Source of the DNA: Candidatus Thorarchaeota archaeon
Lineage (GTDB): Archaea > Asgardarchaeota > Thorarchaeia > Thorarchaeales > Thorarchaeaceae
Assembly: GCA_048882325.1 (NCBI GenBank)
Contig: JBHLRS010000053.1
Span: 1-18,404, forward strand
Direction of reading: 5' to 3'
Length of the DNA: 18,404 nucleotides
Made by a program: the position numbers and the translations under genes. The notes beneath the pieces were generated by a model that saw nothing but the letters and a program-made list of their open reading frames with translations, did not search any database and was not told the origin of the DNA. Below are positions 3,345 to 9,067 of the stretch, piece by piece; within the stretch, counting starts at the first letter, position 1, and each line of letters begins with the position of its first letter.

Positions 3345-3563
3345 ATGGGAAAGAAAGGAGTTGCAGCTGGTATTCTGACGTTCCTAGTGGGTCTGCTACT
3401 TGTCATTGATGATCTTCACGACTTTGTGACGGTTCCAGATTTTCTTCACTTTTTACCTGACTTTGATCCCTATTTCGTGTTCGGATTCCAGGTGCACCAT
3501 CTCTACATTGGTATCATAATCCTACTCATTGGGTTGTATATTGCAATGAGGTATGATGAGTAG
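3345..3563 (+). CDS. Small two-TM membrane protein with DDxHD and HHLYIG motifs
   Basis: 72 aa, GGTG-type RBS upstream, two hydrophobic helices, converges neatly on the VOC gene. Confidence 0.75.
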   Translation: MGKKGVAAGILTFLVGLLLVIDDLHDFVTVPDFLHFLPDFDPYFVFGFQVHHLYIGIIILLIGLYIAMRYDE

Positions 3564-3575
3564 TAGGTCCAGACC

Positions 3576-3992
3576 CTACTTCTCATTCTTCACGCGAGGT
3601 TCGGCAACGACCTGAATTGGATTACCCTCAGTGTCCTTCATGTTGAAGTAGGAAACCATGTCAGGAATGTCTGTGATGTCAGATGTGTCGATATTCTTAC
3701 TGGCTAGGTACTTCTTGCATGCATCGAGGTCCTCAACGTCTATAGTGAGTGTCCCTGAACCCTGACGAACCTCACCCTCTTGTAACAGATTAATACCCAG
3801 TCGGGCCCCTTCAGCAGGGAGTGCAAACTCAGCCCATCCGACCTCAGCTCCACCGTCCCACTTGATCTCGAAGCCCATGACCTCTGAGTAGAACTTCTTA
3901 GCACGGTCAAAGTCCTTTACTTGGTACTGAAAATACACAGACCCTTTTCTATAGGGCATTGGCCATTTCTTATCTCCCATAGTTAACACCAC
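3576..3992 (-). CDS. VOC / glyoxalase-bleomycin resistance family protein
   Basis: VKDFDRAKKFYSEVMGF, TIDVEDLDAC and FNMKDTEGNPIQV are typical VOC beta-alpha-beta-beta-beta motifs. The start may be GTG 3992 or ATG 3980. Confidence 0.92.
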   Translation of the reverse strand: MVLTMGDKKWPMPYRKGSVYFQYQVKDFDRAKKFYSEVMGFEIKWDGGAEVGWAEFALPAEGARLGINLLQEGEVRQGSGTLTIDVEDLDACKKYLASKNIDTSDITDIPDMVSYFNMKDTEGNPIQVVAEPRVKNEK

Positions 3993-8668: not shown

Positions 8669-8953
8669 ATGTCAAAGAGTGACGTTCTGAAAGGCCGCAG
8701 AGGCGTTGTCACAAGTTATCGTAGGGGTAAGCACCTACAGCATCCAAATCAAGTGATTTTACTGTTTGACGAGATCAAGACAAGATCAGAAGCAGCGGCA
8801 CTTGTTGGTAGAAAGGTGAAATGGAGCTCACCTCAGGAGAAGGAGTTCCTTGGGAAGGTGCTTGGTCCACATGGAAACAGTGGTGCAGTGAGAGCAAAGT
8901 TCCGAACAAACCTTCCTGGTCAAGCTATTGGCACACCGGTTGTTCTACTATAG
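8669..8953 (+). CDS. rpl35ae: 50S ribosomal protein L35Ae (eL33)
   Basis: GVVTSYRRG...Q.PNQVIL, EAAALVGRKV.W and GKVLGPHGNSGAVRAKF..NLPGQAIG; GGAGG RBS; CTTATATC TATA box near 8616. Confidence 0.97.
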   Translation: MSKSDVLKGRRGVVTSYRRGKHLQHPNQVILLFDEIKTRSEAAALVGRKVKWSSPQEKEFLGKVLGPHGNSGAVRAKFRTNLPGQAIGTPVVLL

Positions 8954-8965
8954 ACAATCACGAAG

Positions 8966-8972
8966 TTTTATC
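8966..8972 (+). promoter_or_regulatory. Putative TATA box for the C/D sRNA
   Basis: TTTTATC preceded by CGAAG (BRE-like), about 24 nt before the sRNA terminal stem at 8996. Confidence 0.5.
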
Positions 8973-8995: not shown

Positions 8996-9067
8996 GGCTC
9001 CGATGATGCAATTGGCTATCCGAGGGCAGAAATGCCCAGCGACGAGTCATAGTTAGACTGAGGAGCC
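8996..9067 (+). ncRNA. Box C/D 2'-O-methylation guide sRNA (double guide, LSU rRNA H69-H71)
   Basis: Terminal stem GGCTCC(8996-9001)/GGAGCC(9062-9067); box C ATGATGC 9003-9009; D' guide AATTGGCTAT; D' CCGA 9020-9023; GGGCA-GAAA-TGCCC hairpin; C' GCGACGA 9039-9045; D guide GTCATAGTTAGA; D CTGA 9058-9061. The guides are complementary to the conserved LSU sequences UAACUAUGAC and GUAGCCAA. Confidence 0.9.

Follow-up and report, generated by a model that had tools for sequence, protein, structure and literature searches.

Gene organization at the rpl35Ae locus

The window, i.e., the whole 18,404-nt stretch of Thorarchaeota DNA under study, carries on its forward strand the gene of ribosomal protein L35Ae (rpl35Ae), a short structured element and a membrane-like open reading frame (ORF) (Table 1). 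The element has a complete C-D'-C'-D architecture enclosed by a 6-bp terminal stem, with every part in the place described by the earlier note, which had proposed a double-guide box C/D sRNA directly 3' of rpl35Ae. This proposal is supported by the anatomy of the element, by its conservation and by its own predicted promoter.

Table 1. Features of the rpl35Ae-sRNA locus (window coordinates)
Feature	Coordinates	Strand	Remarks
rpl35Ae (ribosomal protein L35Ae)	8669..8953	+	Pfam PF01247, E 3.2e-20; ends 42 nt 5' of the sRNA
Probable promoter: purine-rich BRE-like ACGAAG, then TATA box TTTTATC (8966-8972)	8960..8972	+	TATA box at -30 to -24 relative to 8996
5' arm of terminal stem, GGCUCC	8996..9001	+	Pairs with 9062-9067; followed by a single G
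Box C, AUGAUGC	9003..9009	+	Consensus RUGAUGA; seventh position variable in relatives
D' guide, AAUUGGCUAU	9010..9019	+	Position +5 is G9015
Box D', CCGA	9020..9023	+	CUGA in most relatives
Internal hairpin, GGGCA-GAAA-UGCCC	9024..9037	+	5-bp stem, GAAA tetraloop; followed by A
Box C', GCGACGA	9039..9045	+	AUGAUGA, AUGACGA or ACGACGA in other lineages
D guide, GUCAUAGUUAGA	9046..9057	+	Position +5 is U9053, opposite 23S A1913
Box D, CUGA	9058..9061	+	Assigned from the anatomy and the alignment of relatives
3' arm of terminal stem, GGAGCC	9062..9067	+	Pairs with GGCUCC
Membrane-like ORF, 184 aa, multi-helix	9091..9645	+	No Pfam match; separated from the sRNA by 23 nt

Within box C, UGA is invariant and UG nearly invariant in 29 sequences. 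Boxes D' and C' of the window are off consensus at U positions and both retain their GA dinucleotides. The spacer preceding box D is 12 nt long and the one preceding box D' is 10 nt long, or 11 nt when the variable seventh nucleotide of box C is counted. A K-turn geometry arises from the combination of the terminal stem, a bulge of 3 nt (GAU) and the GA dinucleotides in boxes C and D. Since both internal boxes retain GA and are closed by the 5-bp GAAA hairpin, the C'/D' motif reads as a full K-turn, not as a K-loop. Both stems are recovered when the single sequence is folded (-25.7 kcal/mol, z = -2.8). The sequence features that define archaeal box C/D sRNAs are found together here: boxes C and D, a terminal stem, a second K-motif, spacers of about 10-12 nt, a Watson-Crick pair at guide position +5 and the genes of the protein partners. 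The latter comprise adjacent nop5 and fibrillarin genes on contig C46 (228 bits for the Nop domain, 289 bits for fibrillarin) and two ORFs of the L7Ae family.

The complete C-D'-C'-D architecture with terminal stem, searched for as a strict regular expression on both strands of the 3.6-Mb genome, was matched at 8996-9067 only. A relaxed screen for further sRNAs in the genome, with 23 matches against 10 in the reversed-genome control, was too noisy to be used.

The TATA-like box that had been noticed upstream is indeed present and its position is conserved, as, in most genera of the family, (A/C)(G/C)TTTTATC occurs at a constant distance of some 23 nt from where the sRNA begins. Its location, which conforms to archaeal promoter geometry, supports an independent start at position 8996, where the terminal stem begins, and this TATA promoter probably drives the sRNA. 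Among public runs, the stretch is found in DNA metagenomes only, with no RNA run listed.

In all the thorarchaeal loci checked, except two that hold none, rpl35Ae lies directly 5' of the sRNA. The membrane-like ORF keeps its position 3' of the sRNA in nearly all thorarchaeal loci, so that the order rpl35Ae, sRNA, membrane ORF is found in all but two of those checked. In the window, this ORF is preceded by a Shine-Dalgarno-like GGAGAGG and has no TATA box of its own, and the sRNA could possibly be co-transcribed as its leader. The syntenic copies after rpl35Ae that the earlier note had suggested looking for in other Asgard genomes exist not only in Thorarchaeia: the sRNA also follows an L35Ae gene in one locus of Atabeyarchaeum and in one of another Asgard family (f18). 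No linkage to rpl35Ae was found in Heimdallarchaeaceae; in H. aukensis, the sRNA is flanked by an FMN-dehydrogenase-like gene and by a zf-AN1/M50 gene.

Conservation and distribution of the sRNA

A DNA search retrieved the element from nearly all genomes of the genus and also from other genera of the family. With a covariance model built from 29 copies, a single copy was detected in 81 of the 87 genomes of the order, so that the boxes and guides, whose absence from relatives would have counted against the sRNA, are in fact widely kept. In an alignment of 24 distinct sequences, pairing stands at 98% in the two stems and falls to 24-49% when the 3' partner is shifted. Changes on both sides are seen at four pairs, three of them among the five of the internal hairpin, where the changes are among G-C, A-U and G-U or between C-G and U-A. 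In the terminal stem, 98.6% of the cells are paired and one pair varies from U-A to U-G or C-G. A fortuitous occurrence of the motifs was considered and is ruled out by this conservation and covariation.

The 9-nt stretch UCAUAGUUA of the D guide is invariant in the 29 sequences; the family shows almost no change in the D' core GGCUA(U), D' guide positions 1-6 being fixed across about 17 genera. Free variation is seen in the 5' part of the D' guide and in the hairpin loop. At the equivalent place, the versions of Heimdallarchaeaceae, Atabeyarchaeum and two other families (f28 and f32) have a hairpin of unrelated sequence.

The public matches to the thorarchaeal form are from Candidatus Thorarchaeota and those to more distant versions from further Asgard lineages, namely Heimdallarchaeota (Heimdallarchaeum endolithica, H. 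aukensis), Promethearchaeota and Atabeyarchaeum deiterrae, in agreement with the Asgard assignment of this DNA. Within 400 Asgard species, a D-guide pattern was enriched in three groups, being found in 55 of the 85 genomes of the thorarchaeal family (79 of 85 with the covariance model), in 27 of 31 Heimdallarchaeaceae and in all five genomes of family f17, and it occurred as single matches in several further Asgard families; in the largest Asgard family (f9), it occurs in 6 of 135 genomes, which is the rate of the reversed-pattern control. Over 185,579 species, the pattern TGAYGANTYATAGTTANNCTGA gives 36 Asgard matches and nine scattered bacterial ones, the latter being about as many as expected by chance. 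A restriction of the sRNA to Asgard archaea was nevertheless rejected as a reading of this search, because the pattern misses the helix 69 (H69) variants CUCUG and CUGUG, non-canonical C' boxes and sR91 of Ignicoccus (see below).

Some members of the genus depart from this picture. The covariance model finds no copy in two of them (G012 and G014, 91-92% completeness), and a third one (G001, 97% completeness) has a divergent copy (L092:1501-1572, 44 bits) in the same rpl35Ae context. In three others (G002, G017 and G006), box D' reads CGUA and box C' AUUACGA, both G residues of the sheared pairs being replaced by U. This replacement could turn the internal K-turn into two Watson-Crick U-A pairs and suggests that the C'/D' half has been lost or remodelled in this sub-lineage; the C'/D' half can thus decay.

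A separate observation concerns congener G024 (L025 1501-1568; G024:C203:21906-21977), in which some 1.6 kb of unrelated DNA separates the promoter with the first ~32 nt of the sRNA from a complete sRNA copy further on. The insert contains an ORF of 482 aa on the opposite strand, without a Pfam match. This locus has the appearance of an sRNA gene that received an insertion, one flank being duplicated.

The D guide and helix 69

Neither the 23S nor the 16S gene was found in this 93%-complete metagenome-assembled genome (MAG), and target assignment therefore rests on the 23S of congeners, the sequence expected of the host 23S at the D target being CUAACUAUGA. All five same-genus 23S genes read GGGAC-UAACUAUGA-GUCUC-UUAAGGUAGCCAAAUGCC in this region, H69 in the thorarchaeal lineage being CUAACUAUGAG. 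Positions 2-11 of the D guide (5'-UCAUAGUUAG-3') pair perfectly with C1910-A1919 (E. coli numbering) of the same-genus 23S, with 10 Watson-Crick pairs out of 10, and position +5 is a Watson-Crick pair between U9053 and A1913. The complementarity around position +5, without which the D guide assignment would fall, is thus present on congener 23S. When congener 23S and 16S and the tRNAs of this genome were scanned without bias, H69 was the sole 10/10 match of the D guide; the next-best match had one mismatch and two G·U pairs. As to the tRNA genes themselves, ARAGORN with default tRNA settings reported only 14 in this genome, a low count that is probably due to introns or settings and not to biology.

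The earlier note had placed A1913 at +5, which holds for the five same-genus genes, but within the sequence UAACUAUGAC, which does not: the duplex covers C1910-A1919, and UAACUAUGAC is the eukaryotic and general archaeal sequence of H69. In Thorarchaeia and Heimdallarchaeaceae, the closing pair of H69 is flipped to C1910·G1920, whereas it is G·C in Atabeyarchaeum, f18, f9 and eukaryotes; moreover, the 23S of Heimdallarchaeaceae reads GUAGGCAAA instead of GUAGCCAAA. The guide follows the rRNA at two positions. In Thorarchaeia and Heimdallarchaeaceae, where rRNA position 1910 is C and 1918 is G, guide position 2 is G, pairing with C1910, and position 10 is C; in Atabeyarchaeum and f18, where 1910 is G and 1918 is A, guide positions 2 and 10 are C and U, respectively. 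Guide position 12 is unpaired and variable. This guide-rRNA co-variation is the strongest in silico support for the predicted D pairing, and A1913 can be considered secure as a predicted target. We take this nucleotide to be the residue located at intersubunit bridge B2a and at the decoding site.

The D' guide: C1934 or helix 88

The rRNA strand downstream of H69 reads GGUAGCCAAAUG around C1934. Its segment GUAGCCAA pairs with the D' guide over 8 bp and places C1934 at +5; at GUAGCCAAAUG, one G·U pair and then seven Watson-Crick pairs come first, position 9 is an A·A mismatch, and the two pairs beyond it fall within box C or at its edge. The claim that the D' guide addresses C1934 stands as regards the G-C pair at +5 and the nearly invariant core, and is weakened by the shortness of the duplex (seven Watson-Crick pairs and one G·U) and by a competing site in helix 88 (H88).

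Several observations in relatives bear on C1934. The GGCUA(U) core faces the universally conserved GUAGCC, and D' alleles with an extra U pair over 10 bp (G071 and G033). One genus (g36) carries the rRNA change A1937U together with a matching U to A change at guide position 8; another (g9) has U1937 in the rRNA with no compensating change in the guide. The C1934 duplex is reduced to 6-7 bp in several relatives.

As a competing possibility, a cytidine of the H88 apical loop (near E. coli 2405, as estimated by offset) might be the D' target in this genus, either replacing C1934 or in addition to it. The stretch CAAUUGGCUAU of the D' guide can form 11 uninterrupted Watson-Crick pairs with AUAGCCAAUUG in H88 of congener G017, a complementarity that is the top match of the unbiased scan, the probability of a perfect 11-mer occurring by chance in 4.6 kb being about 0.001, and 9-11 bp can be formed at the H88 loop in three genomes of two other genera (G093, G029 and G030; genera g3 and g4). 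However, the H88 loop is variable among close relatives (AUAGCC, AUUGCC, UUUGCC, AACGCC, CUAACC, CUGGCC) and guide positions 1-6 are fixed, mismatches adjoin +5 in G009 and G088, the D' guide of G017 itself forms only 7 bp at its H88, and no H88 match is found outside genera g1, g3 and g4. Furthermore, GCCAA.UG is common to both rRNA sites, so that a guide fitted to one of them half-fits the other, and the pair at +5 is G-C at either. We consider targeting of H88 as rather unlikely, though it is the most probable of the alternatives. C1934 is preferred as the candidate D' target for the family as a whole, at a weaker level of confidence than A1913.

The H88 loops of G012, G014 and G001 are also unlike that of G017. 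Another observation on the rRNA is that two Asgard 23S genes, those of G038 (L032 ~3540-3570) and G048 (L036 ~3600-3650), contain insertions of about 30 and 48 nt, respectively. The insertions, which may be an intron or an expansion, separate H69 (…CUCUUAA) from GGUAGCCAAAUGCC and fall precisely between the two predicted targets of the sRNA family.

A probable double guide for two neighbouring sites

Taken together, the anatomy, the conservation and the pairing make it very probable that 8996-9067 is a 72-nt box C/D sRNA gene of Thorarchaeota and that it encodes a double guide, with a predicted methylation of A1913 and with C1934 as the most likely D' target. Boxes C and D would form a K-turn with the terminal stem, and boxes C' and D' a second, full K-turn with the internal GAAA hairpin. 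L7Ae would bind both K-turns, upon which Nop5 and fibrillarin would assemble. The D guide would pair with the H69 loop (C1910-A1919) and fibrillarin would 2'-O-methylate A1913; the D' guide would most likely pair about 20 nt downstream (G1930-A1937), leading to the methylation of C1934. The sRNA might also clamp the two neighbouring rRNA segments during folding. Transcription, RNP assembly and methylation are all things that we infer from sequence. The literature supports the elements to which this scheme appeals, namely the +5 rule, the occurrence of two targets close to each other and H69 as a hotspot (PMC7994747, PMC4644070, PMC6009581).

Alternatively, the RNA might serve chiefly as a chaperone of rRNA folding, or be a single guide in which only the D half methylates, the D' half being inactive or tethering. 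Chaperone roles have been proposed for double guides with nearby targets (PMC4644070, PMC6009581), and the D' side is indeed the less robust one, with a duplex of 6-8 bp in many relatives, D'/C' boxes that are off consensus and both sheared-pair G residues replaced by U in G002, G017 and G006. A D' half without guide function is nonetheless difficult to reconcile with a GGCUA(U) core that is nearly invariant across about 17 genera, with one compensatory change that tracks the rRNA, with the GA dinucleotides kept in the window and with the covariation of the hairpin of the second K-turn, so that this alternative appears improbable. Finally, a primarily cis-acting L7Ae-binding K-turn leader that would regulate the downstream membrane-protein gene (or the rpl35Ae 3' end), and not act as a guide in trans, is suggested by the location of the sRNA 23 nt 5' of a syntenic ORF with a Shine-Dalgarno-like GGAGAGG and by the lack of a separate TATA box between them, but it hardly deserves credence, since a regulatory K-turn needs neither an invariant 9-nt complement of H69 nor guide changes tracking the rRNA, and since Heimdallarchaeum has the same sRNA between unrelated genes.

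Comparison with other archaeal guides

The A1913 site had been presented as a eukaryote-type site. This description does not hold, as helices 68-71 are published archaeal methylation hotspots (PMC4644070, PMC6009581, PMC7994747), with a high density of predicted archaeal sites in helix 69 around A1912 (PMC4644070), and as an sRNA of Ignicoccus hospitalis, sR91, was predicted for the same adenosine. Like the Asgard RNA, sR91 is a double-guide C-D'-C'-D RNA (Dennis et al. 2015, PMC4644070). It is listed for 23S A2179 and G2211, A2178 corresponding in the alignment to E. coli A1912 (PMC4644070, supplement 1). Its D guide, AUCAGAGUUACG-CUGA, is in the same register on its own H69 loop and has the same adenosine at +5, and its D' guide addresses the strand just downstream, at G2211 (= G1945) (PMC4644070), whereas that of Thorarchaeia is predicted to be directed to C1934.

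The D' guides of Asgard families f17, f18 and f32 are predicted to target G1945, as in sR91, and that of Heimdallarchaeaceae G1940. The D half is thus stable across lineages, and the predicted D' target varies along one rRNA strand (G1945, G1940, C1934). The Asgard RNAs differ from the typical archaeal sRNA, which is about 50 nt long and has a K-loop (PMC6009581), by their length (69-73 nt) and by their D'-C' K-turn hairpin.

sR43 of Methanopyrus kandleri, predicted for C2200 (= C1934) and for G2173 (= G1907) in the H69 stem (PMC4644070, supplement 1), pairs with the same two rRNA neighbourhoods as the thorarchaeal sRNA. It addresses, however, a different nucleotide of H69, and no sequence relationship between the two RNAs was seen.

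Comparison with eukaryotic snR63 and SNORD46

In yeast 25S rRNA, methylation of Am2256 is guided by snR63 (PMC2794176, PMC5199042). This nucleotide of the H69 loop is located two nt 5' of Ψ2258, which is E. coli 1915, and is conserved in human (PMC2794176); Am2256 is therefore A1913. Human 28S Am3739 is the same nucleotide, judging from its position relative to the H69 pseudouridines (PMC2794176). The correspondence of A1913 with the snR63 site of yeast and the SNORD46 site of human, which the earlier note gave, proved to be correct (PMC2794176, PMC5199042; Rfam consensus core).

SNORD46 (U46, Rfam RF00218) has the same guide core, GUCAUAGUUA, at the same 2-nt offset from box D (CUGA); in the Rfam consensus, the guide reads GUCAUAGUUACA-CUGA, with the same core and register. 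At guide position 2, C is found in SNORD46 and G in the window, following the flipped H69 closing pair of Thorarchaeia and Heimdallarchaeaceae. The Rfam models, whose use had been proposed as a check, gave no family reaching its gathering cut-off in the window: SNORD46 scored 13.5 bits (E 3.4 in a 251-nt search) against a cut-off of 40, and SNORD83, sR22 and SNORD46 were the only families reported at E up to 10, all well below cut-off. Of the 104 positions of the SNORD46 model, 29 after box C are gapped in the alignment with the window, which covers the boxes and the D guide only. As the guide sequence is dictated by the common target, its identity with that of SNORD46 is no sign of descent. 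On present sequence comparisons, homology with SNORD46/snR63, including the idea that the sRNA might be a precursor of the snoRNA, is unproven.

Origin and significance of the sRNA family

Our literature search for Asgard C/D sRNAs returned nothing on point, and the Asgard family is, as far as this search shows, both genuine and previously undescribed. The RNA class, its mechanism and the archaeal prediction of the A1913 site were known; the novelty lies in an Asgard family with an internal K-turn hairpin and in its deep linkage to rpl35Ae. The family is almost universal in Thorarchaeia and also occurs in Heimdallarchaeaceae, Atabeyarchaeia and other lineages.

In yeast, the equivalents of both A1913 and G1945 are methylated (Am2256 and Gm2288), G1945 being what we take to be the Gm2288 site of snR75. 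The distribution of the guide, in Asgard archaea, at least one crenarchaeon and eukaryotes, is compatible with an ancient guide lineage as well as with repeated invention at a hotspot. It is tempting to speculate that the Asgard sRNA, sR91 and snR63/SNORD46 form one orthologous lineage, derived from an ancestral A1913 + G1945 double guide, which would predate the split between Asgard archaea and TACK (Ignicoccus) and would have been inherited by eukaryotes, but we regard this as doubtful. If it were true, the rpl35Ae linkage and the internal K-turn hairpin would foreshadow the organization of eukaryotic snoRNAs.

Irrespective of ancestry, the 2'-O-methylated adenosine of the H69 loop of yeast and human is predicted to be present in the closest archaeal relatives of eukaryotes as well. 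Together with sR91, this would make A1913 one of the few precise sites of 2'-O-methylation common to archaea and eukaryotes, a common ancestry of the guides being unproven. Which eukaryotic rRNA methylations predate eukaryotes becomes a question that can be directly tested in Asgard archaea. The two guide positions that track rRNA changes also provide a testable case of guide-target co-evolution, and the covariance model can be used to annotate the sRNA gene in Asgard genomes.
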